64,000 bases of DNA from a virus (lineage: Duplodnaviria > Caudoviricetes): the IMG/VR virus record IMGVR_UViG_3300027833_000011, one strand, 5' to 3'. The notes beneath the pieces are model-generated. The model was given only the letters and a program-made list of their open reading frames with translations, made no database searches and was not told the DNA's origin. Positions 10,935 through 64,000 of the stretch are shown piece by piece. The translations under genes were made by a program, and so were the position numbers. Each line of letters opens with the position of its first letter. Position 1 is the stretch's first letter.

Positions 10935-11624
10935 ATGATACATCCAGAAATTTACAGTTATTTTGATGATAAAGAGGCTTGGAAAAGAAAGTATATGAGA
11001 CCTGAGGCTTTATCAATGGAGTGGGATATGATGTTAGAAGAGGTTGGACCTGATGTCTACCAATTTCCACTATTTAAAGAAGAGTTATGTGCTAAATTAA
11101 TTGAAGAAGCTGAAGCGACACAATCGTGGACACATAAAAGACACGCGTTTTATCCCACTACGGATATGTTGGTCGAGACCTTTGGGTTTGAAGAGATATA
11201 CCATGAGATTATGGATGACTATATTATGGGAGCGGCAAGACACATTTACCAATTAAATGGTCAGAATTGGGACCAAGGAAATGTATATTCCGAGAATTTT
11301 ATGATACGTTATTCACCTGAAGAACAGGGACATTTATCATTACATTATGACCAATCGTCAATATCGTGTAACGTAGCATTAAATAACGACTTTGAGGGTG
11401 GTGGTACGTATTTCTCAAGACATAAGGTATTGGCGAAAGCTAAAGGAACAGGTTATGTTACATTTCATCCTGGACAGATAACACACAAACACGGAGGGAT
11501 GCCGACAAACAAAGGAACCCGATATATTATTGTTTCATTTATGAATGACGATAAAAATAGAGAAAATCACATTAATGATTTAGAAAGATTTGCTAACGAA
11601 AAAGGATTCTATAATGATAAATAA
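10935..11624 (+). CDS. PLOD-type lysyl hydroxylase (2OG-Fe(II) dioxygenase), standalone catalytic domain
   Basis: PDVYQFPLF, PTTDM, NFMIRYSPEEQ, HYD (HxD), NVALN, FEGGG, HPGQITHKHGG, GTRYIIVSF, all collinear with the procollagen-lysine dioxygenase C-terminal domain. Confidence 0.85.
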   Translation: MIHPEIYSYFDDKEAWKRKYMRPEALSMEWDMMLEEVGPDVYQFPLFKEELCAKLIEEAEATQSWTHKRHAFYPTTDMLVETFGFEEIYHEIMDDYIMGAARHIYQLNGQNWDQGNVYSENFMIRYSPEEQGHLSLHYDQSSISCNVALNNDFEGGGTYFSRHKVLAKAKGTGYVTFHPGQITHKHGGMPTNKGTRYIIVSFMNDDKNRENHINDLERFANEKGFYNDK

Positions 11625-12393
11625 GATAGTACATTTCTCAGATTTACATTTAAGATTATATCAATATCATGCTCAATATAAAGAAATATTGACTGATATG
11701 TTACAACAATTTAAAGACGAGGAACCTGACCGTATAGTTTTTACTGGTGATTTAGTACATTCAAAAAATCAGATTACACCTGAACTTATTGATGTGACAA
11801 GGTGGGTGTTAGATGAATGTTCTAAAATTGCGAGGACGGTATTAATAATTGGTAATCATGATTTCTTAGAAAACAATATGGATAGGATGGATTCAATCAG
11901 TCCTATTTTAGATTCTATGAATAATGATAATATTGATTATTATATGGATAAGGGGTTGTATGAAGATGAGAATGTGGTGTGGGTTGTGTATTCGTTAAGG
12001 ACACATAACGAACCACCTGTTATTGATAGAGTTGAGGGTAAGAAACACATTGGATTATTTCACGGACCAGTACATGGGTTAACGACTGACGTTGGTTATG
12101 AATTTTCAGAAGGTTATGACCCGTTTAAATTTAAAGGTTGTGATTTGGTATTGTGTGGTGATATACATAAAAGACAGATATTTGATATTCCTGAAGGTAA
12201 GGCGTATATGGTCGGTTCGACAATACAACAAAACTTTGGAGAGTCAGTTTCAAAACATGGGTATGGTACCTACTATATAGATAAAGATGAATATTCGTTT
12301 ACGGACTTAGATAATAAGTCACCTTTCTTACAATTTAAGATTACGGATATTGAGGACATTGAGAATGGGAAAGAAGTTTTGCTTAACGCTTGA
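11614..12393 (+). CDS. sbcD: Mre11/SbcD (gp47-like) metallophosphoesterase nuclease
   Basis: SDLH, TGDLVH, IGNHD, FHG and GDIH motifs, YMVGS; ATG 11614 preferred to the track start 11590. Confidence 0.85.
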   Translation: MINKIVHFSDLHLRLYQYHAQYKEILTDMLQQFKDEEPDRIVFTGDLVHSKNQITPELIDVTRWVLDECSKIARTVLIIGNHDFLENNMDRMDSISPILDSMNNDNIDYYMDKGLYEDENVVWVVYSLRTHNEPPVIDRVEGKKHIGLFHGPVHGLTTDVGYEFSEGYDPFKFKGCDLVLCGDIHKRQIFDIPEGKAYMVGSTIQQNFGESVSKHGYGTYYIDKDEYSFTDLDNKSPFLQFKITDIEDIENGKEVLLNA

Positions 12394-13566: not shown

Positions 13567-14178
13567 ATGATTAAATTTTTAAAGAAATTATTTAGTAAAG
13601 ATGTTTTATTTGACTTATCAAAGATTGATGGGTTTGTTAAAAACTATGAATTAGACTTAGATAAGTTTGAAAAGGACTGGATGACAGGTGATGGTGTTTC
13701 TGATTACGTTAAAGGTGTTAATCACGAATGGTTATCTCCGGAATCGGTAAGTTTAGAAAATGAAGAAATACACATAACGTCTATACATAGACCGATTAAT
13801 GTTGGGGGTGAAATATTTGACTATAAAACAGGTGTGGTAACAACAACACGTTTTTTTAGTTATGGTTATTATGAGTTCTCAGTAGATTTACCAAACAAAA
13901 GTTCACATACGCCAACTGTTGAGATATTCAACCCTGAAAGTAACATTGAATTAGTTACGGGTAATTATGGGGTTAAAAAAATTGGTTTATTATATTTAAA
14001 CAAGAAAATAGAACTTTACCACGACAATATTTTAGTTAAGAAGATTAAGAACGGGAATATAGGTTCTGAGGTGAAGTTAAGAATTAAGCACGGATTAAAT
14101 CCTTCGGTTGAAGGTACCCACATTAAAGGTAACGATACTTTAAGGTTGATTAGTTTAGACTATTACAGAAAAAAATGA
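13567..14178 (+). CDS. degenerate GH16-like beta-sandwich protein
   Basis: YKTGVVTT..FSYGYYEFSVDLP resembles GH16, but there is no ExDxxE motif. Confidence 0.4.
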   Translation: MIKFLKKLFSKDVLFDLSKIDGFVKNYELDLDKFEKDWMTGDGVSDYVKGVNHEWLSPESVSLENEEIHITSIHRPINVGGEIFDYKTGVVTTTRFFSYGYYEFSVDLPNKSSHTPTVEIFNPESNIELVTGNYGVKKIGLLYLNKKIELYHDNILVKKIKNGNIGSEVKLRIKHGLNPSVEGTHIKGNDTLRLISLDYYRKK

Positions 14179-15104
14179 TACTAAAATTAGGTTCTAAAGG
14201 TGAGAGTGTTAAAGAAATACAAGAGTTTCTCGGTATTACAATGGATGGTGATTTCGGTCCAAAAACTGAGAGAGCAGTTAAAGAATGGCAAAAGACAAAA
14301 GGACTATTTGTTGATGGTATTGTTGGTCCTTCCACTTGGAACGCTATGGGTATTGCTACTACTGATATATCGGAAATTGCGTTAACAGATGGAATAGTTA
14401 TCAATAAGACTTATTTACCCGACGGTGAATATTATAAAGGGCCTGTGGATAAAGAATACTTATTTTTACACCACACGGCAGGTGGAAATAACCCATATAG
14501 AACTATATTACATTGGGGTAGAGACAGTAGAGGTAGAATTGCAACTGAGTTTGTTATTGGAGGTAAGTCAATTGATGGTGACGACCAATACGATGGTGAG
14601 ATAGTTCAATCATTTTCTGAAGGGGGTTATTCATGGCATTTGGGTAAGAATGGCTCACAACATATGCACGTACACTCAGTAGGTATTGAGGTTTGTAATT
14701 ATGGTTATCTAACTAAAGGTGGGTACAAAAAGAAAATTAATGGTAGACGTGTTTGGGTGGATAGAGACCCTGATTCTTATTACGCATACACAGGTAGTAA
14801 AATACGTGAAGAGGATATTGTGTTTACTGAGGAATTTAGAGGTTATACTGCGTGGCACGCATACACAGACAAGCAAATTGAGTCTTTAAAGGAGTTAATA
14901 CTTTACATCAAAGAAAGAGATGGTATTGACATACAAAAGGGATTAATTAGTGAATATAAAAAAAATGGTTTGGATTCATTTGAATGGAATTCAGATGCAT
15001 ATTATGGTAGAATTAAGGGTATGTGGACACATACAAACACCAAAAAAGGTAAGTCAGATATGTCACCCCAACCCAAACTGATTGAGATGTTACTCAGTCT
15101 ATAA
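14175..15104 (+). CDS. endolysin: peptidoglycan-binding domain plus N-acetylmuramoyl-L-alanine amidase (Amidase_2)
   Basis: LKLGSKG..V..IQ..L...DGDFGPKTE.AV..WQ...DGIVGP.TW; then LHHTAG, SVGIEVCN, THT..K.D. Confidence 0.85.
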   Translation: MILKLGSKGESVKEIQEFLGITMDGDFGPKTERAVKEWQKTKGLFVDGIVGPSTWNAMGIATTDISEIALTDGIVINKTYLPDGEYYKGPVDKEYLFLHHTAGGNNPYRTILHWGRDSRGRIATEFVIGGKSIDGDDQYDGEIVQSFSEGGYSWHLGKNGSQHMHVHSVGIEVCNYGYLTKGGYKKKINGRRVWVDRDPDSYYAYTGSKIREEDIVFTEEFRGYTAWHAYTDKQIESLKELILYIKERDGIDIQKGLISEYKKNGLDSFEWNSDAYYGRIKGMWTHTNTKKGKSDMSPQPKLIEMLLSL

Positions 15105-22469: not shown

Positions 22470-23144
22470 ATGGATTATAGAGATATTAACGACTTTGGTC
22501 GTTTTGCTAAAGATAAGGGGATTTCAGGAATGAATCTTCACTACTTCAACCAAAAAGTAGAAAATTCAATGACACCTTACATTTTAGAGGAGAGAAGTCT
22601 TAACGTAACACAAATGGATGTGTTTTCAAGATTAATGATGGACAGAATCTTATGGGTTTCGGGACCTGTAAATGACCAAATGGCGTCTATTGTACAAGCA
22701 CAATTACTATTCTTAGATAACCTTGACGATAGAGATATTTCAATGTATATCGATTCACCAGGTGGTTCTGTTAAAGCGGGACTTTCAATGGTTGATGTTA
22801 TGGACTATGTGAATAGTGATATTGCTACCGTTAATGCAGGAATGGCGGCATCGATGGGTTCTGTACTGTTAGGTGCAGGAACCAAAGGTAAAAGGTCTTC
22901 ATTAAGATTCTCACAAACAATGTTACACCAATCATCAGGTGGTGCGGTAGGTAACATTCAAGATGCTGAGATTTCTATGATTGAATGGAGAAAAGTAAAC
23001 CAACAGTTATTTGAATTGTTAGGGGGTTACTGTGAAAAAGACGCAGAACAAGTTAAGAAAGATGCGACTCGTGATTTCTGGTTAAGTGCTGACGAAGCGA
23101 AAGACTACGGAATTATTGATGAAGTTATTCGTAAACGAAGATAA
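22470..23144 (+). CDS. clpP: ATP-dependent Clp protease proteolytic subunit
   Basis: DVFSRLMMDRI, YIDSPGGSV, AASMGS (Ser), MLHQ (His), RDFWL (Asp). Confidence 0.95.
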   Translation: MDYRDINDFGRFAKDKGISGMNLHYFNQKVENSMTPYILEERSLNVTQMDVFSRLMMDRILWVSGPVNDQMASIVQAQLLFLDNLDDRDISMYIDSPGGSVKAGLSMVDVMDYVNSDIATVNAGMAASMGSVLLGAGTKGKRSSLRFSQTMLHQSSGGAVGNIQDAEISMIEWRKVNQQLFELLGGYCEKDAEQVKKDATRDFWLSADEAKDYGIIDEVIRKRR

Positions 23145-24423: not shown

Positions 24424-25215
24424 ATGGCTAAATACACATCACACATCAACCAAGACGAGATATCACATTATCTTAAAGAGTTAAGAAAGATTCCTGTTAT
24501 CACACCTGCTAGAGAAAAGGAACTGTCTAAAATTATGTTAAATCCGAATGTAACCCAAAGAGAGACTGATAAGGTACATAAAGAATTGTTGGAGGGTAAC
24601 TTAAGATTTGTTATAACAGTGGCTAAAGACTACCAAGGTCAAGGTATTGATTTATCTGACTTGATATCTGAAGGTAATTTAGGTCTTATGAAGGCGATTA
24701 AGTCATTTGATTGGAGTAGAGGTTTAAGATTTATATCATACGCGGTATGGTGGGTTAAACAATCAATCTTCCAATGTCTAAATGAAAATTCAAGGACTAT
24801 TAGGTTACCTGTTAATGTTGTACAAGAAGTACAAAAGGCAAAAAAACAAGATAAACGTGTGGAGGATTTAAATCCACGTCTTAGTAATTTAGCACACGCA
24901 ATCACCTTCGATGACCATATTAATGAGGAGGGTGACACTATGTTCGATTTATTAGAAGATGTTGAAGCGGTAATGCCAGATTCAGCTTTGGACGGTAAAG
25001 ATATAGTTAAAAGACAACTCCTTACTATTATGGATGTCTTAGACGAACGTGAAAATGCTATAGTTAAAGATTACTTCGGAATCACTGGTACTCCAAGGAC
25101 TTTAGAAGACATTGGTAATGATTTCGGACTTACAAAAGAAAGGGTCAGACAAATTAAAGAAAAGGCGTTACGTAAGTTACGTAATGAGTCAGACGCAATA
25201 TTTGACTACTTATAA
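24424..25215 (+). CDS. RNA polymerase sigma70-family factor (RpoD/RpoS-like, no region 1.1)
   Basis: YLKEL, NLRFVITVAK, DLISEGNLGLMKA..FD..RG.RF.SYAVWW, HTH TLEDIG..FGLTKERVRQI. Confidence 0.92.
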   Translation: MAKYTSHINQDEISHYLKELRKIPVITPAREKELSKIMLNPNVTQRETDKVHKELLEGNLRFVITVAKDYQGQGIDLSDLISEGNLGLMKAIKSFDWSRGLRFISYAVWWVKQSIFQCLNENSRTIRLPVNVVQEVQKAKKQDKRVEDLNPRLSNLAHAITFDDHINEEGDTMFDLLEDVEAVMPDSALDGKDIVKRQLLTIMDVLDERENAIVKDYFGITGTPRTLEDIGNDFGLTKERVRQIKEKALRKLRNESDAIFDYL

Positions 25216-25267: not shown

Positions 25268-26791
25268 ATGAGAATACTTAGAGAACTACAGAAAAGAATA
25301 TTCCCAACGTTGATAGCACTTACGGCATTGTCTGTGAGTCTTTCAGCTGCCTTTTATTCGGTAACGGGATTGAGTAAATTATTTGCGGGAGCGTCATTTC
25401 AAGTTATGGTAATGGCGGGTTCATTAGAAGTCGCTAAATTGGTGATAGCTTCGTTGTTATACCAATATTGGGGACAGTTAAATAAAATATTAAGAACCTA
25501 TCTGTCAGTTGCGACTGTGATATTGGTGATAATTACATCGGTAGGTATATACGGATTCTTGTCTGCGGCGTACCAAGAAACTGCAACGAAAACAGGGATT
25601 GTAGACAAAGAAGTTGAGTTATTAGAACTTAGAAAAAATAGGTTTGCTGAGAGTAGAGATTACTACTACCAAGAAAAAAAGTCTTTAGATGAAGGGATAA
25701 ATCAATTAAGGAAAGGGTTATCTAATAACGTCATTCAATATAAAGATAAAGAAACAGGTCAGATTATAACCACAACATCATCTTCAAACCGAAGAGCGTT
25801 ACAAGAACAACTTAAGAGTGCTATAGAACAAAGAAGTCAAATTTCTATTAAGTTAGAACAGGCAACAGATTCTATAAATTCAATAGAGGTTAAATCATTG
25901 ACTGTAGAGACAGAGTCAGATTTGGCAGGTGAATTGGGTCCACTGAAATATTTGAGTGAATTGACAGATGTACCAATGAATAGGATTATCAATTACTTAT
26001 TATTGATTATTATATTTGTGTTTGACCCTCTAGCAATATCTTTAGTGATTGCTGCTAACTTTGCGTTTGATAAGATAAAACCTAAAAAGAAAGAGGTTGA
26101 CGATAATACGGAGGTTGGACCACAACCAATGATTTTAAACGAAGATGTTTTATCACACATAGAAAAAGTATTAGATAAAAAGGTTAGGGATGTCTCAGAC
26201 CTTAAAGAACCTGATTCTGAACAAGGGGTAATGGTTGATGAAGAAGAAATCGACGAAGACAATATGTACGATGAAGATTACTACCAATGGGAAAAAGAAT
26301 CTGTTGAAGAATTACATTTACGAGACATATCTGAAGATTTTGTAGAGGATATCATAATTGATAAATCCAACCAAGATGAGTTAATCAGGACAATGGCTAG
26401 TTTAGATAGTAGTGAAGTTTTACGTGAAATTAAGAAAGAGATTATGCCGGATAAAGATAATTCATGGGATAGTACACTACAAGACGGTTTAGAAGATGAA
26501 GAATGGGATGAAGACCATGCGTTAGACCAAGTAATGAATGATATGGTTAAAGATTTCACTGAGGAGGATATTCAAAAAATAATTGACACCAACGAGGAGG
26601 AGATTGAACCTAATGAAGATTTAAAATTAGCGGCTGAAAAATTTAAAGATATAGTGGTCAATGACCCTGAAGAAGTGGTTGTTGAAGACACGTTAAAAGA
26701 GGTAGAACCACCTGTTAGTAAAACTAATGTGTCACCATATTTAAGAGTAGGAAATAGGGTAATACCGAGAAACAAGAGATATGGAAAATAA
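25268..26791 (+). CDS. multi-pass membrane protein with coiled coil and acidic tail
   Basis: N-terminal TM helices (SAAFYSV.GL..LFAG, LEVAKLV), GELGPLKY, IIFVFDPLA. Confidence 0.7.
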   Translation: MRILRELQKRIFPTLIALTALSVSLSAAFYSVTGLSKLFAGASFQVMVMAGSLEVAKLVIASLLYQYWGQLNKILRTYLSVATVILVIITSVGIYGFLSAAYQETATKTGIVDKEVELLELRKNRFAESRDYYYQEKKSLDEGINQLRKGLSNNVIQYKDKETGQIITTTSSSNRRALQEQLKSAIEQRSQISIKLEQATDSINSIEVKSLTVETESDLAGELGPLKYLSELTDVPMNRIINYLLLIIIFVFDPLAISLVIAANFAFDKIKPKKKEVDDNTEVGPQPMILNEDVLSHIEKVLDKKVRDVSDLKEPDSEQGVMVDEEEIDEDNMYDEDYYQWEKESVEELHLRDISEDFVEDIIIDKSNQDELIRTMASLDSSEVLREIKKEIMPDKDNSWDSTLQDGLEDEEWDEDHALDQVMNDMVKDFTEEDIQKIIDTNEEEIEPNEDLKLAAEKFKDIVVNDPEEVVVEDTLKEVEPPVSKTNVSPYLRVGNRVIPRNKRYGK

Positions 26792-27374
26792 TCAAAAGCC
26801 GTTTCATATTAGAAGAAAACAGAATAAGACTCAAATAATGTTAACTCACACATCACGTGACTTAAAATTTTATTTGATGACTTTGAAGTATAGATATGGT
26901 GGTAATTTTGAAAGAATACCGTCTTATCTTATTAGTAAAGAAGGAGTGGTTACCAATATGTTCGAAGCTAAATATAGTTCAAATTACTTTGGAACGAGAA
27001 GAATTGATAACCGAGCGATTATAATTTCATTAGAAAATAATGGTTGGTTAAAAAAACATCACCTATCGGGTAAGTTTATGAACTGGGTTGGTGATATTTA
27101 TTTTAAGAAGCCTTTCGAAAAGAAATGGAGAGGTTTCGGGTTTTGGGATTCTTATACTGATGAACAGTATAAGTCATTATCGGACCTAATAACAAAATTA
27201 AGTGAAGAGTTTGATATACCTTTGGAGTATGTAGGACACAACACTAAGATAACGGGGGTACAAAATTTTAAAGGTATTACCTCAAGGTCGAACTATTCGG
27301 ATATACATACTGATGTGTCACCGGCATTTGATTTTAAAAAGTTAAAACAATATATAGATGAAAAACACGATTAA
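26781..27374 (+). CDS. Amidase_2-fold protein, probably inactive
   Basis: IMLTHT, YLISKEG, IIISLEN, YTDEQYKSL; Zn-ligand His positions appear replaced (LTHT, TSRSN). Confidence 0.6.
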   Translation: MENNQKPFHIRRKQNKTQIMLTHTSRDLKFYLMTLKYRYGGNFERIPSYLISKEGVVTNMFEAKYSSNYFGTRRIDNRAIIISLENNGWLKKHHLSGKFMNWVGDIYFKKPFEKKWRGFGFWDSYTDEQYKSLSDLITKLSEEFDIPLEYVGHNTKITGVQNFKGITSRSNYSDIHTDVSPAFDFKKLKQYIDEKHD

Positions 27375-30081: not shown

Positions 30082-30116
30082 TACTATAAAGATATTTATA
30101 TTAAAAGACCATTAAG

Positions 30117-31004: not shown

Positions 31005-31041
31005 GACTTGATATAACTTAAGTTTTTGGTATTCTTATTGT

Positions 31042-31512: not shown

Positions 31513-31560
31513 CATAACATAAAAAAGTGATTAACTTTTACATAAATAAAAACAATTGTA

Positions 31561-31734: not shown

Positions 31735-31735
31735 G

Positions 31736-31915: not shown

Positions 31916-31916
31916 C

Positions 31917-40347: not shown

Positions 40348-40348
40348 C

Positions 40349-43819: not shown

Positions 43820-43843
43820 TATTTATAGTTAATACTATCTACT

Positions 43844-44656: not shown

Positions 44657-44658
44657 TA

Positions 44659-45210: not shown

Positions 45211-45211
45211 A

Positions 45212-46189
45212 TTAAAATATAATAAGTTCTTTGGTTTTGTCTAACTTTTCCCATTGAAATTTATCAGGATTATCAAAACCGTTAATATAGTAATCTTTAT
45301 AATTTGGTGTGAAAAAATCTAACTTATCTTTCATTTGTTTAATTGATAGAGGAAAGACATCCATTACACAACTATAAATATTTTTCATATCGTATTTCTC
45401 AGTACCAAATGAATTAATATTAAAACTTAATGGTGTAATTGAACTTTGATTAAAGTTAACACTTATTAAACATTCGTCCATTAATGAACTATTAACAATG
45501 TTTTTAGACATATACCTCAAATAAAGAGGTAGTATTCTATTTGGTGATAATGGGTCAGAACCAATGAATTGATTATTGGTTGTTGGTAATTCGTGATAAC
45601 TATGTAGAGTATTATTATTGGTATAGAACTCACTATGGGTTGTATATGTATTTAAGATACTTACAGATGGTTTCTCTAAGTTTGGGTCGTCGAGTCTAAC
45701 AATATTTAAAACGTCTTTCTTAGACACACTCCTGTCGTTAGTCATAACAGTAATTGATATGACATTACATTCTTTAGTATCGTATGTTAATTGACAAATA
45801 TGTGAGTGACTTTTACTCAACCCGTCTACAATTTTTTGAGAGATGTGTTTACCAATGGGGTATGAATTGACTACGTTTTTTGTTGAGTACCCATAATAGT
45901 TACCATAATGTAGTGTGTCAGAATAAATTGGCGATTTTTGTTGAAAAAAATTAATCTCGGAGAACGTATTAAATAACTCAAAATTATCTTGGAAAAGGTA
46001 TGATTTCAAATCAATTAAGTTTGTAGTAGGAAGATAGATATTACAGTATTTACCAAATATTGAAGTATTTATATTGTAAGGAAACAGATTGTTACACTCA
46101 ATGAAGTAGTCCACAATAGATTCGCTAATAATATTAGGAATAGATTGTTTAGTTTTAACCGAATAAGACTTGTAATTTCTGTATCTCAC
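45212..46189 (-). CDS. divergent S-adenosylmethionine synthetase (MetK) homolog lacking catalytic motifs
   Basis: Collinear with MetK throughout (GYST.N; LRYMSKNIV..L.DEC.I; SFGTEK; F.L..M.D.LD...P.Y; FQWEKLDK); GHPDK, GRK and GGGAFSGKD motifs eroded; GTG start. Confidence 0.75.
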   Translation of the reverse strand: MRYRNYKSYSVKTKQSIPNIISESIVDYFIECNNLFPYNINTSIFGKYCNIYLPTTNLIDLKSYLFQDNFELFNTFSEINFFQQKSPIYSDTLHYGNYYGYSTKNVVNSYPIGKHISQKIVDGLSKSHSHICQLTYDTKECNVISITVMTNDRSVSKKDVLNIVRLDDPNLEKPSVSILNTYTTHSEFYTNNNTLHSYHELPTTNNQFIGSDPLSPNRILPLYLRYMSKNIVNSSLMDECLISVNFNQSSITPLSFNINSFGTEKYDMKNIYSCVMDVFPLSIKQMKDKLDFFTPNYKDYYINGFDNPDKFQWEKLDKTKELIIF

Positions 46190-46277
46190 TTTTTTTTTTA
46201 ATAAATGTATATAAATTATACTACATTATAAAGGAAGTGATATTTATAAAAGTATTAAAAAAGTAAAAAGATAATAA

Positions 46278-48833
46278 ATGGCTAGGTATAGAAGGCTCAC
46301 CACAACTACTACTTCAATCATTCAGGGCGTCCCGTCCACTATCGACACAATACAAGAATTAGCATCATTCGTAAATGAAAATGCTATTATTAATGTTGAT
46401 ATAAACGGGTTAGACTTAGTAATTGATAGAAATAACGGAACACAAGACGTTATTGATTTAACTCCAATTGCGACAGGAGAGGTAAGTGCGGTATCTATAA
46501 TAAGTACTAATTTAAATAACGGTACTTTAACCTTAACCAAGTCAGACAACACAGAGTTTAGTGTTGATTTAAAACAACTACAATTCATCGTTACACCTTC
46601 ATTGGTTGGTAACGATTTAATTTTTACAGATTCTTTAGGTTCTACAATTAGTATTGACCTAACATCCTTCGACCAAACAGTTTCAGTTAATTCACTTTCG
46701 ACACGTATTTCTTCAGAAGAAATCGGTAGAATCGAGGGGGATAACTCATTGTCTGGTTCGATAAATTCACTTTCAACTAGAATAGACAATAGTGGTTCTA
46801 CGTATGACGATACTGCCGTGTATGGTGAGATATCTACGGTAAAAACGTCATTAGACGGTAGAATAGATGGTATTTCGATACCATCAGAATTTGATTCAAG
46901 TTCTTTAAATACTAGGGTTTCATCTGTAGAGAGTACGGTTAGCGGAATTTCAATTCCTTCGGATTTTGATTCAAGTTCGTTAACAACAAGAATATCATCT
47001 GTAGAGAGTACGGTTGATGGGATTTCAATTCCTTCGGAGTTTGATTCTTCTTCACTAACCAGTAGAATTTCTATTGAGGAGAGTGTTCGTACGGATGGTG
47101 ATACATCGATTTCACAGTCGATTAATCAAAGATTCAGTAATATAAGTGGTTCTATTTACGATGATACGTCATTAACGACAAGAGTGTTGTCAATAGAAAG
47201 TAGTGTTGACGGAATATCAGTACCTACTGATGTGTCTGACTTAACTGATAATGGGGGTGTTTTAAATGGAACAACGTATGATGATGCATCGATAGAGACG
47301 AGAATTTCTTCGTCAGTATCATCTTTAGATACGAGGTTTGAGAATAACAGTTCAACTTACGATGACACTGACATATATGGTCAGGTTTCCTCAGTTAAGG
47401 TATCATTAGACACTAGAATTGACGGGTTAGTAATACCTAACGAATATAATGATAGTTCTTTACAGACTAGAGTTTCTTCAGTAGAGAGTACGGTTAATGG
47501 TATTTCAATACCATCAGAATTTGACCCATCATCTTTAGAAGATAGGGTTTCTGTGGAGAAAGTTGGAAGAATTGCTGGTGATAATTCATTAACAATTCGT
47601 GTTAGTCAATTAGAAGTTGCTGACCCATCTATAGATAGTAGAATTTCAACGGAAGAGTCATCTCGTATATCGGGTGACACTTCGATAGACCAAAGATTTA
47701 GTAATCTTAGTGGTTCTATATATAATGACACATCATTAGTAAGTAGGGTATCGACATTAGAGGATACCGTTGGTGGTATATCTATTCCTTCAGAATTTGA
47801 TTCTACATCACTTACAACAAGGTTATCGTCAGTAGAGAGTACGGTTAATGGTATTTCGATACCATCAGAATTTGATTCAAGTTCAATTGAGACACGTATT
47901 ACAACAAATGATACACATATCGTTTCTATTAATACTAGAGTATCAAACAAAGAAACATTAATTAGTGACGTATCAACAGAGTTGGCGTCATTATCTATAC
48001 CATCAGAATTTAATTCTTCGTCTTTAACAACGAGAATATCTGCGATGGAGATTGTTCATGATTTAGACGAACAATCAATCAATACAAAAATATCGAGTAA
48101 TAGTTCAACAATAGCTTCATTAGATAATAAGTTATCGTTAACTGAAACTAATTTTAGTTCGGATATATCATCATTAACAAGTTTAATTGGTGGGTTACAA
48201 ACGGTTGTTAATAGTCAACAATCTACAATAGTCTCATTAGGGGATAAAATTGAAGAATGTTGTGATGGTCCTGAACCAACTACAACAACTACAACAACTG
48301 AGTCACCTACAACGACTACTACAACAACTGAGTCACCTACAACTACAACAACAACGACTCAGAGTGGTACGACTACAACGACAACGACATTAAATAGTAG
48401 TAACTCTTATCTATTATATGCTGACGCTGGGCCTGGTGCAGGACAAGTATTATACAATTCGAGTAACCAACAATTCTATCCGTTCTTAGTACAAAATAGT
48501 CCAACAAATTTTAATGATTTTGTTACGGACAGACTTAACAATTCAAATAATATTACTATATTTAGTCATGACGTATGTGCAGATAAAGACACCGTTACTT
48601 TTAGTTTGAATTTCCCAGGAAGTACAAACGGAGTACAGGCGTTCTACTTACATCCGTCGTCTCAAGGCACTATAGTTAATATACTTGATACGAATAATAA
48701 CACTACCTATTCTGTGACACCAAGTAGTGGTCAATCAGTAACGATAGGTGGTGCTAACTATACTTTATATAGATGGTTACAACCACAACCGAATGGTTCG
48801 ACTTTCTCAATAAAGGTAAATAATTGTTTATAA
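46278..48833 (+). CDS. fibre or structural protein with SSLxTRISSVES repeats and a Thr-rich linker
   Basis: Repeats GISIPSEFDSSSLTTRISSVES; CCDGPEPTTTTTTT tracts; globular C-terminus. Confidence 0.75.
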   Translation: MARYRRLTTTTTSIIQGVPSTIDTIQELASFVNENAIINVDINGLDLVIDRNNGTQDVIDLTPIATGEVSAVSIISTNLNNGTLTLTKSDNTEFSVDLKQLQFIVTPSLVGNDLIFTDSLGSTISIDLTSFDQTVSVNSLSTRISSEEIGRIEGDNSLSGSINSLSTRIDNSGSTYDDTAVYGEISTVKTSLDGRIDGISIPSEFDSSSLNTRVSSVESTVSGISIPSDFDSSSLTTRISSVESTVDGISIPSEFDSSSLTSRISIEESVRTDGDTSISQSINQRFSNISGSIYDDTSLTTRVLSIESSVDGISVPTDVSDLTDNGGVLNGTTYDDASIETRISSSVSSLDTRFENNSSTYDDTDIYGQVSSVKVSLDTRIDGLVIPNEYNDSSLQTRVSSVESTVNGISIPSEFDPSSLEDRVSVEKVGRIAGDNSLTIRVSQLEVADPSIDSRISTEESSRISGDTSIDQRFSNLSGSIYNDTSLVSRVSTLEDTVGGISIPSEFDSTSLTTRLSSVESTVNGISIPSEFDSSSIETRITTNDTHIVSINTRVSNKETLISDVSTELASLSIPSEFNSSSLTTRISAMEIVHDLDEQSINTKISSNSSTIASLDNKLSLTETNFSSDISSLTSLIGGLQTVVNSQQSTIVSLGDKIEECCDGPEPTTTTTTTESPTTTTTTTESPTTTTTTTQSGTTTTTTTLNSSNSYLLYADAGPGAGQVLYNSSNQQFYPFLVQNSPTNFNDFVTDRLNNSNNITIFSHDVCADKDTVTFSLNFPGSTNGVQAFYLHPSSQGTIVNILDTNNNTTYSVTPSSGQSVTIGGANYTLYRWLQPQPNGSTFSIKVNNCL

Positions 48834-48834
48834 T

Positions 48835-49716
48835 ATGGCTGACGAAATATTTCCAATTCAAGAAGGTGGTTTAACAGTAGGAGGACCTATCGTACCAGCA
48901 TCTGAAGATGCTACGTACGGAACGCACTTCTCATATTTAGGTGTTGGTGGGTATGTTGAAGTACCAACTGATGATTATAGAAATGGAATCCCTGTGGGTT
49001 CAAACATAAATGCTGACGGATATTCTTCAGGTAGAAGAAGATTCGGTATGATGGTTTATGTTATTGAAGATAATAAACTTTATAGACTATCACCTACAAA
49101 GGCTGATGGTAATAAGGTATCGTTATCTGATTGGGACACCGCAAGTGAAGCACAAAAGATTGTTTGGTTAGACCCTATGGCGTCTGCTTTTGACTTCTCG
49201 ACGTTTTCACAAATAACGGGAACACAAGACGATGATGATGCTTGGGAGGAGTTAGATTTCACGTCAGGTGGAAGTAATACAGATACTAAAGTATCAGGCG
49301 CGACTCTAACGGGTTCGGTACTTTCAATAAAACAAAACAACGGAGAACCTAATATTAATTTAGATTTATCAGGTTTAGATGACCGTTTTGTATACGCTGG
49401 TAGTTATAACGCAGGGCAACTAACGTTAAATATATCAGGTGCTGATGATGTGGTAGTTCCATTACAGGGATTAGTAAACACCATAGCAGATACGGCATCA
49501 TTTGATGCTACAACAAATAAAATAGTATTCTCAAGTGATGGAGGAGGTAGTCTATTTAGTGTGGACCTTTCAGCTCTTAAGGATAATGAAGATAATTTAG
49601 TCGCTTCAGAAGCAGTCGACGGTGAGGTTGATGTTGTTACTGAAGAAGAACTAACGCAGAGAATTAATGAAGATTTTTCAGATTATTTAGATGATAATTT
49701 AAGTTCATTAATTTAA
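48835..49716 (+). CDS. structural protein of the fibre cluster
   Basis: GRRRFGMMVYV motif, beta-rich G.L.L....VDLS repeats. Confidence 0.65.
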   Translation: MADEIFPIQEGGLTVGGPIVPASEDATYGTHFSYLGVGGYVEVPTDDYRNGIPVGSNINADGYSSGRRRFGMMVYVIEDNKLYRLSPTKADGNKVSLSDWDTASEAQKIVWLDPMASAFDFSTFSQITGTQDDDDAWEELDFTSGGSNTDTKVSGATLTGSVLSIKQNNGEPNINLDLSGLDDRFVYAGSYNAGQLTLNISGADDVVVPLQGLVNTIADTASFDATTNKIVFSSDGGGSLFSVDLSALKDNEDNLVASEAVDGEVDVVTEEELTQRINEDFSDYLDDNLSSLI

Positions 49717-49786
49717 TGTAAAACGAGATACTTACAACCGGTGGGTTGTATTTATTAATAATAAACCATATATAAAAAAAAACAAA

Positions 49787-52303
49787 ATGGCAAACACACA
49801 ATTTCAAGATTTAGCATCACTTATTGCGGGTAAGTTGAATTTAATCATTGGTAAAGTAAACACCAACACATCAGGAAGGACTTCATTAGGAGTTGCAATT
49901 TCTGACGAGGCGGCTACACGTTTATCAAATGACAATTCAATCGTAGCATTAATCGACGCTAACGATGCGAAAGACGTATCATTAGAAACAAGAGTTTCAG
50001 GTGAAGAGGTCTTAAGAGTAAATGCTGACGGTTCTTTAACAACAAGAATCGGAGCGGAAGAGGTAGCAAGAGCGAGTGCTGATTTAGCGGCGTCTCAATC
50101 TGTTACTGCAAAATTAACATCAGTAGATTCGAGAGTAACTGCTGAGGAGTCTTCAAGAGTTGCGGGTGATTCATCTGTAACAACTGCAATGACTAATAAA
50201 ATTAATCAAGTTGAAGCGGATTCAATTTCTGCTGACGGTTCATTAGCAACTGCAATCGGTAACGAGGCGACTGCTAGAGTAAACGCTGACGGTTCTTTAA
50301 CAACAAGAGTATCGAACGAAGAAGTAGCAAGAGAAAACGGAGACGTTTCAATCGCGGCTTTACTTTCGACTGAGGTTGTTGATAGAACAAACGCAGTATC
50401 TGCTGAAGCAACGGCTAGAGTTAATGGAGATAATTCATTAAACTCTAAAATTTCTTCTGAGACATCTGCAAGAGTATCGGCTATATCATCAGTAGATGTA
50501 GAATTAGCTGGTGGAGTTGGTTCAATTGAAACAAGATTATCAAACGAAGAATCGACATCAGCATCGGCTGACGCTTCTATCGTTGTTGCTTACCAAGCGG
50601 CTGACGTATCTTTAACTTCAAGATTATCGACTGAAGAAGAAGCAAGAGCTAACGGAGATTCTGCATTAGAGACTTCATTAAACTCTGAGATATCTTCAAG
50701 AGCATCAGGTGATGTGGTATTAGATGGTAAAATCTCAACAGAAGTTGTAAGAGCAACGGCTGCTGAAGGTTCATTAAATACTAAAGTATCTGTTGAAACG
50801 GCAAGAGCGATTGGTGTTGAAGGTTCATTAGAAACAAGAATTTCTTCTGAAGAGGAAGCTACAGTATCTTTAGCTAACTCATTACAGGTTTACATGTCTG
50901 ACGAAGTTGAGTCAATTGATGTAAGAGTATCAAACGAAGAATCGACATCAGCATCAGCTGACGCATCTATCGTTGTTGCTTACCAAGCTGCTGACGGTGT
51001 ATTAGAAACAAGAATTTCTAATGAGGAAGTTGCAAGAGCAAACGGAGACACTGCATTAAATACTTCATTAACATCTGAAATCTCTTCTAGAGTATCAGGT
51101 GACTTATCGTTAAACAACAAAATTGATTCAGAAATTTCAACTGAGGTTATCGCAAGAGACTCAGCAATTACTGGAGCGATTAACGACTTAGTGGATGGTG
51201 CAGGTGATGCATACAACACTTTAAGTGAATTACAAGCAGAATTACAAGATAACGATAGTGATATCGCTACTATCTTAACTGCACAAGGTTCTTTAAATAC
51301 AAGAATTGGGGCTGAAGAGTCTGTATCTGCATCGGCTGACACATCTATCGAACTTAGAGTTTCAACTTTAGAGAACGGTAATACATCAGCAGTAGATTCA
51401 TTAGATGTAAGAGTAACGGCTGAAGAGTCAATCTCAATTTCATCTGACGCATCTTTAGAGACAAGAATCTCAAATGATGAAGACGCATTAGCATCGGCGA
51501 AACTTTCATTAGGAAACGCTGACGGTTCATTAGAAACAAGAATTTCTGAAGAAGAATCAGTACAGGCATCTGTAGGTTCATCTTTAACAACAAGAGTTTC
51601 AAACGAAGAATCGACAAGATTGGCTAAAGATACTTCAATCGAGGTGGCTTACCAATTAGCTGACACTTCATTAACAACAAGAATTTCTACTGAAGAAGTT
51701 CTTAGACAAGCTGGTTTAAGTATTTTAGCTTCTGATATCGAAGATGAAGAAGATAGAGCAATTGCAGTTGAAGGTTCGTTAAATACGAAACTTAACGCTG
51801 AAATCGCAACAAGTTCTACGGCTGACGCATCGTTAAACACGAAGGCTAACAGTTTAGAAACTAAATTTGACGGAGAAGTTGAGACTGAATCAATCGCAAG
51901 AGTTTCAGCTGATACTTCATTAACATCAAGATTATCAACTGAGGAAGTTGCAAGAGTTAACGGTGACGCATCTGTATTATCAGCGGCAACATCATCAGCA
52001 ACGGCAGTATCAGTAGCACTATCAAGTGAGATTTCTTCAACTAATGCAGATTTCGTATCATCAGACGCAAGAGTACTTGCTGAAGAAGGAGCGAGAGGAG
52101 CGGCAGACACGTCATTAACGACAAGATTATCGTCTGAAGAAGTTGCAAGAGCTAACGGAGACAATGCGATTAACGTAGACCTTACATCATTAGAAACAAG
52201 AGTTTCAACGGATGAGGTTGAGTTATCAAGTCACATTGCTTTCCAAGGGACAGTTGCTGAATTCTCAACTGTATTAGATGCTAACATTATAGCATTAAGT
52301 TAA
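49787..52303 (+). CDS. long coiled-coil fibre protein with 18/11-residue repeats
   Basis: ADxSLxTRxSxEExARxx units over about 800 aa. Confidence 0.8.
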   Translation: MANTQFQDLASLIAGKLNLIIGKVNTNTSGRTSLGVAISDEAATRLSNDNSIVALIDANDAKDVSLETRVSGEEVLRVNADGSLTTRIGAEEVARASADLAASQSVTAKLTSVDSRVTAEESSRVAGDSSVTTAMTNKINQVEADSISADGSLATAIGNEATARVNADGSLTTRVSNEEVARENGDVSIAALLSTEVVDRTNAVSAEATARVNGDNSLNSKISSETSARVSAISSVDVELAGGVGSIETRLSNEESTSASADASIVVAYQAADVSLTSRLSTEEEARANGDSALETSLNSEISSRASGDVVLDGKISTEVVRATAAEGSLNTKVSVETARAIGVEGSLETRISSEEEATVSLANSLQVYMSDEVESIDVRVSNEESTSASADASIVVAYQAADGVLETRISNEEVARANGDTALNTSLTSEISSRVSGDLSLNNKIDSEISTEVIARDSAITGAINDLVDGAGDAYNTLSELQAELQDNDSDIATILTAQGSLNTRIGAEESVSASADTSIELRVSTLENGNTSAVDSLDVRVTAEESISISSDASLETRISNDEDALASAKLSLGNADGSLETRISEEESVQASVGSSLTTRVSNEESTRLAKDTSIEVAYQLADTSLTTRISTEEVLRQAGLSILASDIEDEEDRAIAVEGSLNTKLNAEIATSSTADASLNTKANSLETKFDGEVETESIARVSADTSLTSRLSTEEVARVNGDASVLSAATSSATAVSVALSSEISSTNADFVSSDARVLAEEGARGAADTSLTTRLSSEEVARANGDNAINVDLTSLETRVSTDEVELSSHIAFQGTVAEFSTVLDANIIALS

Positions 52304-60771: not shown

Positions 60772-63588
60772 ATGGCTAAGAACATAATTATCACACCGAA
60801 TTTAACAGGGACAGATAATCCAAACATAGCTATCACCAATGGAAATGAAGAGATTGTCATCGGCTTAAACGCCGGTGGCTCTCTTATCTTCCAAGATGGT
60901 GGTGGAGCTACGTTATTGGAACTGGACTCTAATGGTAACGCCACAGTAAAGAACCAAAACCTTAAAACTAATCAGTTTACAGTAAACTCACAAGACGCTT
61001 TCGACGAGTCCCTTTATGTAGGTCCATCAGGACACTTAAAAGGACAGAAAGGTATCAAAGGAAACATAGGACCCACCGGAGCTCAAGGAGCGAAAGGAGT
61101 AATTGGGGCAAAAGGTTTGAAAGGATACATTGGTTCCGTAGGGGTGGTAGGTGCCCAAGGTGCTCAGGGTACTCAAGGACAAGTAGGTGCAACTGCACCA
61201 CAAGGTCCAAAAGGCCCAATAGGAAATGCAGGTCCAATAGGACCCGTAGGACCAAAAGGAGGACAAGGTACTCAAGGACCTAAAGGTTACGTAGGTAATC
61301 AAGGGAGTAAAGGAGTAACAGGACCTAAAGGTCTAAAAGGAGGAGTAGGTCTACAAGGACCAAAAGGTGCTTCACCTCAAGGACCACAAGGACCGCAAGG
61401 ACCTCAAGGACCACAAGGACCGCAAGGACCTAAAGGTTATAAAGGGATAAAAGGTGCGACAGGGAATGTCGGACCAACAGGTTATAAAGGTATCGCGGGT
61501 ACTAAAGGTAACGAAGGACCCATAGGGGACAGAGGAGCCACAGGACTTAAAGGATACAAAGGTATTACAGGACCTAAGGGTCAGACGGGTAATAAAGGAC
61601 CCAAAGGTAATGCCGGTGACCAAGGACCTACTGCATCGAAAGGTGTGTTAGGTAATAAAGGTACTAAAGGTAATAAAGGTGTCATTGGCTCGAAAGGGTA
61701 TAAGGGCAACAGAGGAACTCAAGGACCAAAAGGATATGAACCGAAAGGACCGAAAGGATACCAAGGACCGAAAGGATACAAAGGTATCAAAGGAAATAAA
61801 GGTATTAAAGGTATTACAGGACCAGGTGGACCGAGAGGTATACAAGGTGGTGGTGGTGACTTAGGACCTACGGGAACTGCAGGTATCAACGGACCAAAAG
61901 GACCAAGAGGTGTTCAAGGACCTGTCGGTACTCAAGGACCAAAAGGTTATAAGGGTGTCAAAGGTATCAAAGGACCTCAGGGTACAAAAGGACCTCAGGG
62001 AGACCAAGGAGGACCAGGTGCTAAAGGTGTTATTGGAGGCCAAGGTAATAAAGGTATAAAAGGTAACGCAGGACCAAAAGGTTATATTGGTTCTTCTATT
62101 AAAGGTAATAGAGGAGGACAAGGACCAACAGGTTATAAAGGTATCAAAGGTAATAAAGGTGTTAAGGGTATCAAAGGAAACTTTGGACCACAAGGACCTA
62201 CAGGACTAAAAGGAAACCAAGGAGGACAAGGTGCTAAAGGATATGCTGGAGCTACAGGAACTAAAGGTAACCGAGGTGGTACTGGAGGTTCTGGAGACAA
62301 AGGTGTTACAGGACCAGGTGGACCAACAGGTGGAAAAGGTATTAAAGGTAACATAGGTGGCCAAGGAGCAAGAGGTAATACAGGAGCCCAAGGTTATCAA
62401 GGAGCAAGAGGTACTACAGGACTTAAAGGAAATAAAGGTATTAAAGGTTATCAAGGACCAGGTGGACCAACAGGTGGTAAAGGTATTAAAGGTAATATCG
62501 GACCAGGTGGACCAACAGGGCCAGGAGGTGATAGAGGACCAGGAGGTGATACAGGTGGTAAAGGTTACAGAGGTGACCAAGGACCTGTAGGACAGAAAGG
62601 TTATAAAGGAGCACCAGGTGGTAAAGGTATCAAAGGTAACATAGGTGGTCAAGGAGCGAGAGGTCCACAAGGAGGACAAGGGTCTCAAGGACCACGAGGT
62701 GGAACAGGACCAAAAGGACCTAAAGGTTACAAAGGTAATGCTGGTAACAAAGGTTATCAAGGTGCTAAAGGTATCAAAGGTAATAAAGGAACTAAGGGTT
62801 ATACAGGTACTCAAGGGTTGAGTGGTGACAAAGGTTATATAGGTGGACCAGGAGGACAAGGACCAGCTGGAGGTAATAATACGACTAAAGGTGGTAGAGG
62901 AGCTACAGGTTCTTCTCCAAAAGGTTATATTGGAGCACAAGGTAACAAAGGTGTTAAAGGTTTTATAGGTAATCAAGGACCGGGAGGTGACATATATTTG
63001 GTATCAAATTTCCCTGATGCACCAAGTGGACCAACAGGTGATAGAGGACCTACAGGTTCTAATGGTACATCTAAAGGACCAAAAGGATATGCAGGACCTT
63101 TAGGTGCTAAAGGTAATCAAGGACCAAAAGGACCAACGACTTTCGGAAGCAAAGGTAAGAGAGGTGCAAAAGGTACTGGAGGACCAAAAGGACCTACAGG
63201 TTATAAAGGTATTAGAGGGCCGAATGGTTATAAAGGACCAAAAGGACCTACAGGAAATACATCTGATGCAAGATTGAAAGAAAACATTAAAGAGTTAACA
63301 GGTGGTATTGAAAAAATATCAAAACTTAGAGGTGTTAAATTTGATTGGGTAGAAGGTTCTATACATAATGTACACGAAGTTAAAGGTAGAGATGCTGGTT
63401 TTATCGCTCAAGAAGTTAATGAGGTTTTACCTGAGTTGACTAATATAATGAATGAAGAGAATGGTACGATGCAAGTTAACTACGCTAAGATGACTTCAGT
63501 ATTAATTTCAGCGCTGAGAGAACAGAGGGAAATCGTTAAAGAATATACTGATAAACTTGAAATAATTAAATTAAATCGTTCGAAATAA
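60772..63588 (+). CDS. Lys-rich collagen-like fibre with a C-terminal Peptidase_S74 intramolecular chaperone
   Basis: About 240 Gly-X-Y triplets (approx. 61040-63258) with short interruptions; SDARLKENI...GFIAQEV..VNY S74 motifs. Confidence 0.92.
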   Translation: MAKNIIITPNLTGTDNPNIAITNGNEEIVIGLNAGGSLIFQDGGGATLLELDSNGNATVKNQNLKTNQFTVNSQDAFDESLYVGPSGHLKGQKGIKGNIGPTGAQGAKGVIGAKGLKGYIGSVGVVGAQGAQGTQGQVGATAPQGPKGPIGNAGPIGPVGPKGGQGTQGPKGYVGNQGSKGVTGPKGLKGGVGLQGPKGASPQGPQGPQGPQGPQGPQGPKGYKGIKGATGNVGPTGYKGIAGTKGNEGPIGDRGATGLKGYKGITGPKGQTGNKGPKGNAGDQGPTASKGVLGNKGTKGNKGVIGSKGYKGNRGTQGPKGYEPKGPKGYQGPKGYKGIKGNKGIKGITGPGGPRGIQGGGGDLGPTGTAGINGPKGPRGVQGPVGTQGPKGYKGVKGIKGPQGTKGPQGDQGGPGAKGVIGGQGNKGIKGNAGPKGYIGSSIKGNRGGQGPTGYKGIKGNKGVKGIKGNFGPQGPTGLKGNQGGQGAKGYAGATGTKGNRGGTGGSGDKGVTGPGGPTGGKGIKGNIGGQGARGNTGAQGYQGARGTTGLKGNKGIKGYQGPGGPTGGKGIKGNIGPGGPTGPGGDRGPGGDTGGKGYRGDQGPVGQKGYKGAPGGKGIKGNIGGQGARGPQGGQGSQGPRGGTGPKGPKGYKGNAGNKGYQGAKGIKGNKGTKGYTGTQGLSGDKGYIGGPGGQGPAGGNNTTKGGRGATGSSPKGYIGAQGNKGVKGFIGNQGPGGDIYLVSNFPDAPSGPTGDRGPTGSNGTSKGPKGYAGPLGAKGNQGPKGPTTFGSKGKRGAKGTGGPKGPTGYKGIRGPNGYKGPKGPTGNTSDARLKENIKELTGGIEKISKLRGVKFDWVEGSIHNVHEVKGRDAGFIAQEVNEVLPELTNIMNEENGTMQVNYAKMTSVLISALREQREIVKEYTDKLEIIKLNRSK

Positions 63589-64000
63589 TGGCACTACAAA
63601 AAGGAAACAAAGGGATACATATATTCCCAAATAGAGTAGGTACGAATGAACCTAAAATAGAACTTTATCAAGGTTCTACTACGTATACACTAGAGGTAGA
63701 AGACAATACTAATGATGTTGTTATATTCTTAAATGGTACAGAGGTTGCTCGTATGAAATCATCAGGTGATGAAAGATTTCAAATTGTTGGAGACCTAATA
63801 ATTGACGGAGATTTAAGAGACTCAAGTGGTAACGTAATCGTAACTCAATCAGGTATATACAACGGAACATTTCAAGGTACTACAGGTGACAGAGGACCTC
63901 AGGGACCTCAAGGTAACCAAGGACCTAAGGGAATAAAAGGACCAAAAGGTAACTTTGGACCTACAGGTCAGAAAGGACTTAAAGGTATTGCTGGTAATAA
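63588..64000 (+). CDS. second collagen-like protein (partial, runs off the window)
   Basis: TAATG coupling; MALQKGNKGIHIFPN... then GTTGDRGPQGPQGNQGPKGIKGPKGNFGPTGQKGLKGIAGN. Confidence 0.85.
   Translation, partial: MALQKGNKGIHIFPNRVGTNEPKIELYQGSTTYTLEVEDNTNDVVIFLNGTEVARMKSSGDERFQIVGDLIIDGDLRDSSGNVIVTQSGIYNGTFQGTTGDRGPQGPQGNQGPKGIKGPKGNFGPTGQKGLKGIAGN

Follow-up and report, generated by a model that had tools for sequence, protein, structure and literature searches.

The window analysed here, a stretch of 64,000 nucleotides, is drawn from IMG/VR virus record IMGVR_UViG_3300027833_000011 (Duplodnaviria; Caudoviricetes). A first-pass annotation made from the letters had singled out five open reading frames (ORFs): one for a PLOD-type lysyl hydroxylase (LH), one for a glycosyltransferase (GT) of family GT25, one for a PLOD-type GT and two for collagen-like fibres. 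All five were found where it had placed them, on the plus strand (Table 1). The window has a GC content of 31-41% and carries dense genes, mostly on the plus strand and frequently overlapping. The enzyme and fibre ORFs are not there by chance, given that relatives retain these genes with 47-99% identity.

Table 1 Positions of the enzyme and fibre genes, of other genes in the window and of bacterial LH fusions (aa, amino acids)
Feature	Position	Strand	Match or proposed role
Stand-alone PLOD-type LH domain, 229 aa	10935-11624	+	Pfam, LH3 and L230 matches
Single-domain GT25 glycosyltransferase, 246 aa	21124-21864	+	Candidate hydroxylysine (Hyl) galactosyltransferase
PLOD-type GT and accessory (AC) domains, 468 aa	38070-39476	+	Candidate galactosyl-hydroxylysine (Gal-Hyl) glucosyltransferase
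Collagen-like tail fibre, 938 aa	60772-63588	+	Pfam Collagen, 241 bits; Peptidase_S74 at residues 831-889
Second collagen-like fibre, start only	63588-64000 (cut by window end)	+	Collagen, 28.9 bits
Protein with GT2-type domain	4166-5668		Glyco_tranf_2_4, E 2e-12
Two separate Amidase_2 proteins	14175-15104 (also PG_binding_1); 26781-27374		Candidate endolysins or virion lysins
ClpP, sigma-70-type factor (regions 2 and 4) and full DnaJ	among 22470-23144, 24424-25215, 33347-34156		ClpP, E 7e-58
325-aa protein	45212-46189	-	C-terminal domain of S-adenosylmethionine (SAM) synthetase only, E 4e-18
Four large ORFs, 851, 838, 476 and 2273 aa	46278-60723		Directly upstream of the collagens
Bacterial chromosomal GT4-LH fusions, ~570 aa	L121 6924-8606 (Aliishimia); L122 6873-8612; L120 1016-2752

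Three enzyme genes and two collagen-like fibre genes

The 10935 protein matched the Pfam families OGFOD2-like (36.9 bits, cut-off 31) and 2OG-FeII_Oxy (26.1 bits, cut-off 23). Its residues 2-204 aligned with the LH domain of human LH3/PLOD3 (chain positions 503-714, E 3.7e-34), and the solved LH domain of mimivirus L230 (6ax6) was matched at E 2.1e-27. The Fe ligands H137-x-D139 and H186 and the 2-oxoglutarate residue R196 aligned to the LH3 ligands, which we take to be H667, D669, H719 and R729, and were invariant in 17 homologues (alignment A3). Orthologues were found at 69-97% identity, with syntenic copies in L007 and L009-L012. The predicted activity, hydroxylation of Lys in the X-Lys-Gly sequences of collagen, has indirect support from the Lys-in-Y collagens that co-occur with the gene.

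Pfam GT_PLOD (PF25342) matched residues 2-226 of the 38070 protein at 218 bits (cut-off 27), and its residues 4-466 aligned both with LH3 (15-492, E 1e-55) and with mimivirus R699 (18-455, E 4e-51). The motifs DSYD and DDDQ were located at residues 82-85 and 155-158. Residues W41, K59, D82, Y84 and D85 correspond to W48, K62, D83, Y85 and D86 of R699, and E108, W112, D156, D157 and N212 to E114, W118, D162, D163 and N218. These ten R699 residues have been probed by mutagenesis or structure, and all were critical except Y85 (PMC9546862, PMC12279948). In alignment A1 the Mn-binding DxxD pair D82/D85, the uridine diphosphate (UDP)-binding W41, E108/W112 of the glycoloop, D156/D157 of the poly-Asp loop and H210/N212 were invariant; the roles given here to the DxxD motif, the UDP Trp, the two loops and the Asn after the metal His follow the same two studies. 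Judged by alignment, the 38070 protein is an architectural twin of R699, a proven Gal-Hyl glucosyltransferase. Jointly, the 38070 and 10935 proteins span LH3 15-492 and 503-714, as would a PLOD cut in two between its AC and LH domains.

The 21124 protein matched Pfam Glyco_transf_25 (PF01755) at 37.1 bits (cut-off 24). A profile of 28 GT25 homologues aligned over its full length with the C-terminal catalytic domain of human COLGALT1 (E 1.3e-17), versus E 2e-3 over 40 residues for a solved bacterial GT25 and E 0.09 for mimivirus R655. The AlphaFold2 model had a predicted local distance difference test score (pLDDT) of 85. Its top fold matches in both PDB and Swiss-Prot were the COLGALT1/2 catalytic domains, with template modelling (TM) scores of 0.74-0.76 and E ~1e-15, versus TM 0.38-0.57 for R655 and the bacterial lipooligosaccharide (LOS) GT25 enzymes taken together and 0.48-0.57 for the LOS enzymes. 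D109/D110 correspond to the COLGALT1 Asp pair D436/D437 (Mn/ribose) and D196 to the catalytic base D522, and all three were invariant in the 28 homologues; the roles of the COLGALT1 residues were defined by its ternary complex (PMC12987934). COLGALT1/2 are two-lobed, with a non-catalytic N-terminal GT domain that binds UDP-Gal and docks on LH3 (PMC11897130, PMC12003778, PMC12987934). The 246 residues of the phage protein span the C-terminal catalytic domain alone.

The proposed substrate, the 60772 protein, consists of a non-collagen N-terminal head of ~90 aa, 233 G-X-Y triplets (counted in runs of at least 4; longest unbroken run 86) and a C-terminal S74 intramolecular chaperone domain (E 1e-15). 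Matches to this S74 tail were found in the tail-fibre genes of 1169 phage records. Of the Lys residues in the triplets, 85 stand in Y (36.5% of Y positions) and one in X, whereas Pro fills 62 X and 3 Y positions; were X and Y equally used, the chance of finding at most one X among the 86 Lys would be ~1e-24. Y is the position acted on by PLOD and COLGALT enzymes (PMC12987934, PMC13382579). With Pro nearly absent from Y, stabilisation through hydroxyproline lacks its substrate. The second fibre ORF starts in overlap with the stop of the first and has Lys in Y in 5 of 13 triplets before the window ends. Its orthologue in the related contig L116 has 966 aa, the first 342 of which carry 32.5% Lys in Y, and the L116 orthologue of the 60772 fibre carries 29.6%.

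These results bear out what the first-pass annotation had read at the five ORFs, namely a PLOD-type LH domain with intact HxD...H...R, a COLGALT-like GT25, a PLOD-type GT with DSYD and the poly-Asp DDDQ, and collagen fibres dominated by Gly-X-Lys. The comparison with PLOD3, COLGALT1 and L230 that it had proposed, done in sequence and, for the GT25, also in structure, gave a match for each of the three enzymes, with the GT25 closer to COLGALT than to the LOS GT25 enzymes.

Recurrence of the enzymes and of collagens with Lys in Y

Relatives from Tara and polar metagenomes kept the LH, GT25 and PLOD-type GT genes in synteny even where the PLOD-type GT was only 47-60% identical, and along one syntenic contig the orthologous fibres had 30-33% Lys in Y and 0-1% in X. 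In four distant IMG/VR contigs (G001-G004, 119-199 kb) the PLOD-type GT was 34% identical and the LH 45-48%; the GT25 was present at 59-61% identity in G003 and G004. Each of the four carried 3-4 collagen genes, encoding ~350 to 1773 aa, with Lys in 29-49% of Y and at most 1.3% of X positions. The three enzymes and Lys-in-Y collagens are found together in several phage lineages, T4-like jumbo contigs included, which is the co-occurrence that the first-pass annotation had suggested looking for.

A tandem LH pair was observed in three of the distant contigs (G001:C1:46815-48169, G002:C1:79551-80926 and G004:C1:11991-13348), with identities to the window LH of 45-48% and 30-34%. The window clade has one LH copy, and stop codons were flagged within some of the tandem matches of the distant relatives.

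Searching viral contigs with the single PLOD-type GT sequence returned no related loci and an alignment-based profile was required; the PLOD-type GT alignment had no match among genome contigs. Using the profile, 35 of 60 viral loci had a collagen ORF of at least 20 triplets inside 10 kb, and in most of these 35 Lys was the first or second commonest Y residue. Collectively, the data clearly indicate that such systems are common among marine phages.

Cultured phages gave a related picture. Among 50,697 deposited phage records, a PLOD-GT-like sequence was present in 11, an LH-like sequence in 12 and a GT25 relative in none. Most of these phages are cyanophages (S-CAM9, S-PRM1, S-8S53/55/56), joined by the Roseobacter phage CRP-6, and the genes are annotated as hypothetical protein or generic 2-oxoglutarate (2OG) oxygenase. 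In CRP-6 the GT-LH fusion gp58 lies two genes downstream of the tail fibre gp60, whose collagen has 99 triplets with 26 Lys in Y and 0 in X. The S-CAM9 fusion, N161109_031, follows four genes after an 1831-aa tail fibre, N161109_027, with 65 triplets, 22 Lys in Y and 0 in X. Two LH-negative cyanophages, S-SCSM2R and ACG-2014f, had collagens with 0% and 2.3% Lys in Y, where Gln or Thr dominated; Thr is the dominant Y residue of bacterial collagens according to a review (PMC8968730). The earlier statement that the genes are scattered over 50 kb is accurate for the window lineage but not for other phages, in which the enzyme adjoins its substrate.

Two further observations concern related genes. 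Synechococcus phage Sf-FS3 (L105, PV340856.1 ~29593-30354) has an annotated prolyl 4-hydroxylase-type 2OG dioxygenase directly after a 2423-aa S74 tail-fibre gene, a further cyanophage pairing of tail fibre and oxygenase; its record gave no collagen match at E 1e-5. An abundant metagenomic family of ~692 aa (P0029, P0035, P0062, P0063, P0105 and others), on contigs of up to 110 kb, has a PLOD-type GT fused to SAM-dependent methyltransferase domains.

In metagenomes, the GT25 and LH subfamilies of the window often occur in fused form. In a set of 1.8 billion representative proteins, the 150 closest relatives of the GT25 family include GT25-LH, GT4-GT25-LH and GT25-PLOD-GT fusions. At least 36 of the 150 end in an LH domain that is 34-50% identical to the window LH, which makes it nearer than any animal PLOD (~33%). 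At the level of sequence, these fusions link the GT25 subfamily of the window to its LH subfamily and to the PLOD-type GT.

Bacterial homologues of the LH, 42-46% identical, were found in Aliishimia, Granulosicoccaceae, a Chromatiales symbiont and Blastocatellia, mostly as GT4-LH fusions. In Aliishimia, a collagen-like ORF (L126) with Lys in Y in 64 of 158 triplets lies 1.3 Mb from the fusion gene, and another of these bacterial genomes has collagen with 19-23% Lys in Y; the rest have little or none. The putative hydroxylate-then-glycosylate module is therefore not confined to phages, and it may have substrates besides collagen.

An unrooted maximum likelihood tree of 51 LH domains placed the animal PLODs in a single clade with strong support and a long branch. 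The window clade fell within a radiation of microbial LH domains (bacterial, fused and stand-alone) whose branching was poorly resolved, and the GT-LH fusions of cultured phages were far more divergent (branch length 4.2). Judged from these sequences, 'animal-type' describes homology, architecture and chemistry, not recent ancestry. The complete animal-type pathway named by the first-pass annotation holds in the first sense only: the LH is part of a broad radiation of microbes and viruses, from which the animal PLODs are set apart as a clade of their own. Two other accounts of the genes were rejected. A recent capture from an animal disagrees with the closest LH relatives, which are microbial at 40-50% identity versus ~33% for animal sequences, and decay into pseudo-enzymes disagrees with catalytic residues that are invariant across lineages.

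Proposed modification of the fibres and alternative readings

We propose that three separate cytoplasmic phage proteins would process the phage's own collagen-like tail-fibre chains before these fold. The LH protein, with Fe2+, 2-oxoglutarate and O2, would hydroxylate the Y-position Lys of Gly-X-Lys. The GT25 protein would then put a first sugar, most likely galactose, on the hydroxylysine, and the GT-AC protein would put on a second, most likely glucose. S74 domains are chaperones that drive trimerisation and are then cleaved off, and the fibre S74 domain would do so at this stage. The outcome would be a fibre in which Y-position Lys, found in 30-50% of triplets, bear hydroxyl groups and mono- or disaccharides; the benefit could lie in a helix kept stable or hydrated without hydroxyproline, in resistance to proteases or in the tuning of receptor binding. 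We infer the fibres as substrate, the order of steps, the identity of the sugars and the benefit from the comparisons above. The chemistry is feasible in bacteria, because mimiviral LH and prolyl 4-hydroxylase hydroxylate collagen inside E. coli (PMC9546862).

We estimate at about 0.65 the probability that the three enzymes carry out both the hydroxylation and the glycosylation of the fibres. Glucosyl-galactosyl-hydroxylysine (Glc-Gal-Hyl) as final product is a tentative assignment, to which we would give slightly less than even odds. The earlier claim that the phage builds collagen with glycosylated hydroxylysine is sustained by homology, motifs, co-occurrence and fusions; the modification itself and its sugars stand as predictions.

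Several points weigh against this proposal, whose support is made up of homology, conserved catalytic residues, substrate-type sequence and co-inheritance. When a complex of the 38070 and 10935 proteins was predicted to ask whether the PLOD halves reassemble, the score was 0.00, which is evidence neither way. In the phage GT25, R354 of COLGALT1, a pyrophosphate contact, is replaced by Tyr17. The counterparts of the lid-loop residues S569/T571 are proposed as S240/T242, where the model has a pLDDT of ~60; S240-x-T242 is invariant in the homologues and collinear with S569/T571, outside the hidden Markov model alignment. The N-terminal domain by which COLGALT1 docks on LH3 is missing. Because of the replaced R354, the lid-loop pair that is only proposed and the absent N-terminal lobe, the 21124 protein, as far as sequence and model indicate, resembles the catalytic half of COLGALT, not the whole of it. 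Neither G001 nor G002, both incomplete contigs, yielded a GT25. Some viral PLOD-GT loci have collagens with merely 1-10% Lys in Y, the bacterial GT4-LH fusions have no collagen gene inside 8 kb, and the LH radiation may act on other substrates too. The control set comprises two LH-negative cyanophages only, because tblastn of the collagen repeat region against phages returned none, probably owing to low-complexity masking. Finally, the many Lys could act through their charge, whether or not they are modified.

The same enzymes might act on the same fibres and leave another glycan, if the sugar added by the GT25 is not galactose or if the PLOD-type GT glucosylates hydroxylysine directly like L230, which makes Glc-Hyl, not Gal-Hyl (PMC9546862). 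Bacterial GT25 enzymes use several donors and acceptors, and alignments, which already show the loss of R354, do not reveal donor specificity. We nevertheless regard this outcome as unlikely: all R699 residues in contact with the Gal-Hyl acceptor or the UDP-Glc donor are retained in the 38070 protein, which has the same GT and AC architecture, R699 is inactive on Glc-Hyl (PMC9546862), and the GT25 is much nearer to COLGALT than to the LOS enzymes.

It is quite improbable that the targets of the enzymes are instead other proteins of the virion or host, or, by way of the GT25, glycans on the host surface, with the Lys-rich collagen coincidental or serving a charge function. Such targets would fit the bacterial GT4-LH fusions without nearby collagen and the position of the enzyme genes, which sit with genes for replication, repair and lysis at a distance of 22-50 kb from the fibres; elsewhere in the genome, a cluster of glycosyltransferases and structural proteins rich in Thr suggest that further glycosylation targets may exist. 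Against them stand the collagens near PLOD-GT relatives in the 35 viral loci and the two cultured phages, the near-confinement of Lys to the position used by PLOD enzymes, the lack of Lys-rich Y in both LH-negative controls and, once more, a GT25 closer to COLGALT than to LOS enzymes.

The genes around the enzymes and fibres bear on both the targets and the host. Just upstream of the LH gene, window 1-9266 is a run of co-oriented, partly overlapping genes that includes the GT2-type gene; glycosyltransferases of this run could act on the fibres as well. The four large ORFs directly upstream of the collagens have 9-14% Thr and 1-3% Lys, the reverse of the collagens. Neither Pfam nor PHROGs matched them; they are conserved in L115/L116 and probably encode proteins of the tail or fibres. 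At 47298-47445, ~145 bases are replaced by ~136 others in contigs from three metatranscriptome libraries, as if this part of the 851-aa Thr-rich protein varied from strain to related strain. PHROGs had no match for 9 of 10 large window proteins. The minus-strand protein with the SAM synthetase domain is conserved in relatives (L004 17169-18140). ClpP, the sigma-70-type factor and DnaJ make up a large host-like set for proteostasis and transcription, and Dam-type methylase and SbcCD-like proteins are also encoded.

The sigma-70 factor, ClpP, the PG_binding and Amidase_2 protein and DnaJ point, by their homology, to a bacterial host. A T4 gp23-type capsid protein (E 4e-63) was found in the distant relatives G001 and G003 only. 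A search of G001-G004 for nucleocytoplasmic large DNA virus (NCLDV) capsids had no match, and carries little weight alone since the control genomes also gave none. Near-identical DNA is present in marine, seawater and coral-reef metagenomes of several studies. We take the source to be, very probably, a T4-like jumbo phage of a marine bacterium. Contigs from metatranscriptome libraries span the PLOD-type GT gene and most of 30000-49999 at 90-100% identity; with DNA carry-over possible, they are weak evidence of expression of that gene. That the window is instead a eukaryotic giant virus or polinton-like virus, and so another mimivirus-type system, is hardly credible: R699-like proteins are common in giant-virus metagenome-assembled genomes (GVMAG loci) and collagen-S74 fusions are known in polinton-like viruses too (PMC12220804), but the sigma-70 factor, ClpP, two Amidase_2 proteins (one peptidoglycan-binding) and SbcCD-like proteins, the tight packing of mostly co-oriented, often overlapping genes and the gp23 capsid genes of the relatives speak for a phage.

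Significance and comparison with known systems

To our knowledge, hydroxylation of collagen Lys and its Glc-Gal glycosylation have been regarded as hallmarks of the animal matrix, with mimivirus as the sole viral exception. A bolder and rather doubtful extension of our proposal would have Hyl-linked collagen glycosylation widespread in marine phages and some bacteria, with fibres carrying Glc-Gal-Hyl that a split PLOD and a minimal COLGALT would make in the bacterial cytoplasm, metazoan PLOD and COLGALT as one branch of an older microbial and viral radiation, and the phage GT25 supplying the galactosyltransferase step missing for fully glycosylated recombinant collagen in E. coli. Should phage tail fibres carry the modification, it would be of a type new among post-translational modifications of virions in bacteria, and the stability of the fibres and their recognition of receptors may be affected by it in marine phages that are abundant. 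Views on how PLOD and COLGALT arose would have to be revised, given that the phage enzymes belong to a large radiation of microbial proteins with many GT-LH fusions. The enzymes would be compact and native to the bacterial cytoplasm. Bacteria cannot yet be used to produce human collagen in glycosylated form, in part because active human glycosyltransferases are hard to express in them (PMC9546862), and a COLGALT-like protein of 246 aa with an R699-like partner would fit this gap. With CRP-6 and S-CAM9 in culture, the core claim can already be put to the test.

A full-text literature search, in a collection without most subscription journals, found no description of a phage lysyl hydroxylase or of Hyl glycosylation in phages, and a review reports no hydroxylysine chemistry for prokaryotic collagens (PMC8968730). 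The earlier statement that no described phage has all three activities and a substrate agrees with that search; it has to be set beside the mimivirus precedent and the two-domain GT-LH genes that lie unannotated in cultured phages.

In animals, the closest counterparts are PLOD3 (LH3) and COLGALT1 (GLT25D1). The GT-AC, LH and GT25 catalytic domains are homologous and keep the metal-binding and catalytic residues, R354 excepted (PMC11897130, PMC12003778, PMC12987934), and the substrate motif is likewise Gly-X-Lys with Lys in Y. Unlike animal PLOD3, the phage PLOD is split over two genes 27 kb apart, and unlike COLGALT1 the phage GT25 has no LH3-docking non-catalytic N-terminal domain. The phage proteins also have no signal peptide or endoplasmic reticulum context, are 17-35% identical to the animal enzymes and, in the case of the LH, lie outside the animal LH clade.

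The GT-LH genes of cultured phages (CRP-6 gp58, S-CAM9 N161109_031, S-PRM1 and S-8S53/55/56) resemble the window system in a PLOD-type GT 29-37% identical and an LH 24-32% identical, and in standing beside a Lys-in-Y collagen tail fibre in both phages checked, CRP-6 and S-CAM9. They differ in being L230-like two-domain fusions with no AC domain and no GT25 partner. BclA, Scl and prophage tail fibres share with the phage fibres the Gly-X-Y repeats between trimerisation domains and a surface or tail-fibre role, but the typical Y residue of bacterial and phage collagens such as BclA and Scl is Thr or Gln, and BclA is glycosylated on Thr (PMC8968730, PMC3368898).

Mimivirus encodes L230 (GT and LH), R699 (GT and AC, Gal-Hyl glucosyltransferase), R655 (GT25-like), L593 (prolyl hydroxylase) and eight collagens (PMC9546862, PMC12279948). 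Both viruses thus pair an LH domain, a PLOD-type GT and a GT25-like enzyme with collagens of their own; the 38070 protein shares with R699 its GT and AC architecture and the residues probed by mutagenesis, and the enzymes are soluble in both cases, the mimiviral ones functioning in bacterial cytoplasm. The host, in contrast, is bacterial and not an amoeba. The phage LH stands alone, whereas L230 is GT-fused, and the phage GT25 is far nearer to COLGALT than R655 is (E 1.3e-17 versus 0.09; TM 0.75 versus ~0.5). No prolyl hydroxylase was seen in the window, whose collagens are almost without Y-Pro, and the phage substrates are tail fibres with S74 chaperone domains. The kind of system is known from mimivirus, where the activity of R699 is proven (PMC9546862). 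What is new here is its setting in a bacterial virus and any account of it for phages, the indication that it is common among those of the sea, the three-enzyme version, the split between LH and GT-AC, and a minimal GT25 much nearer to COLGALT than R655 is.

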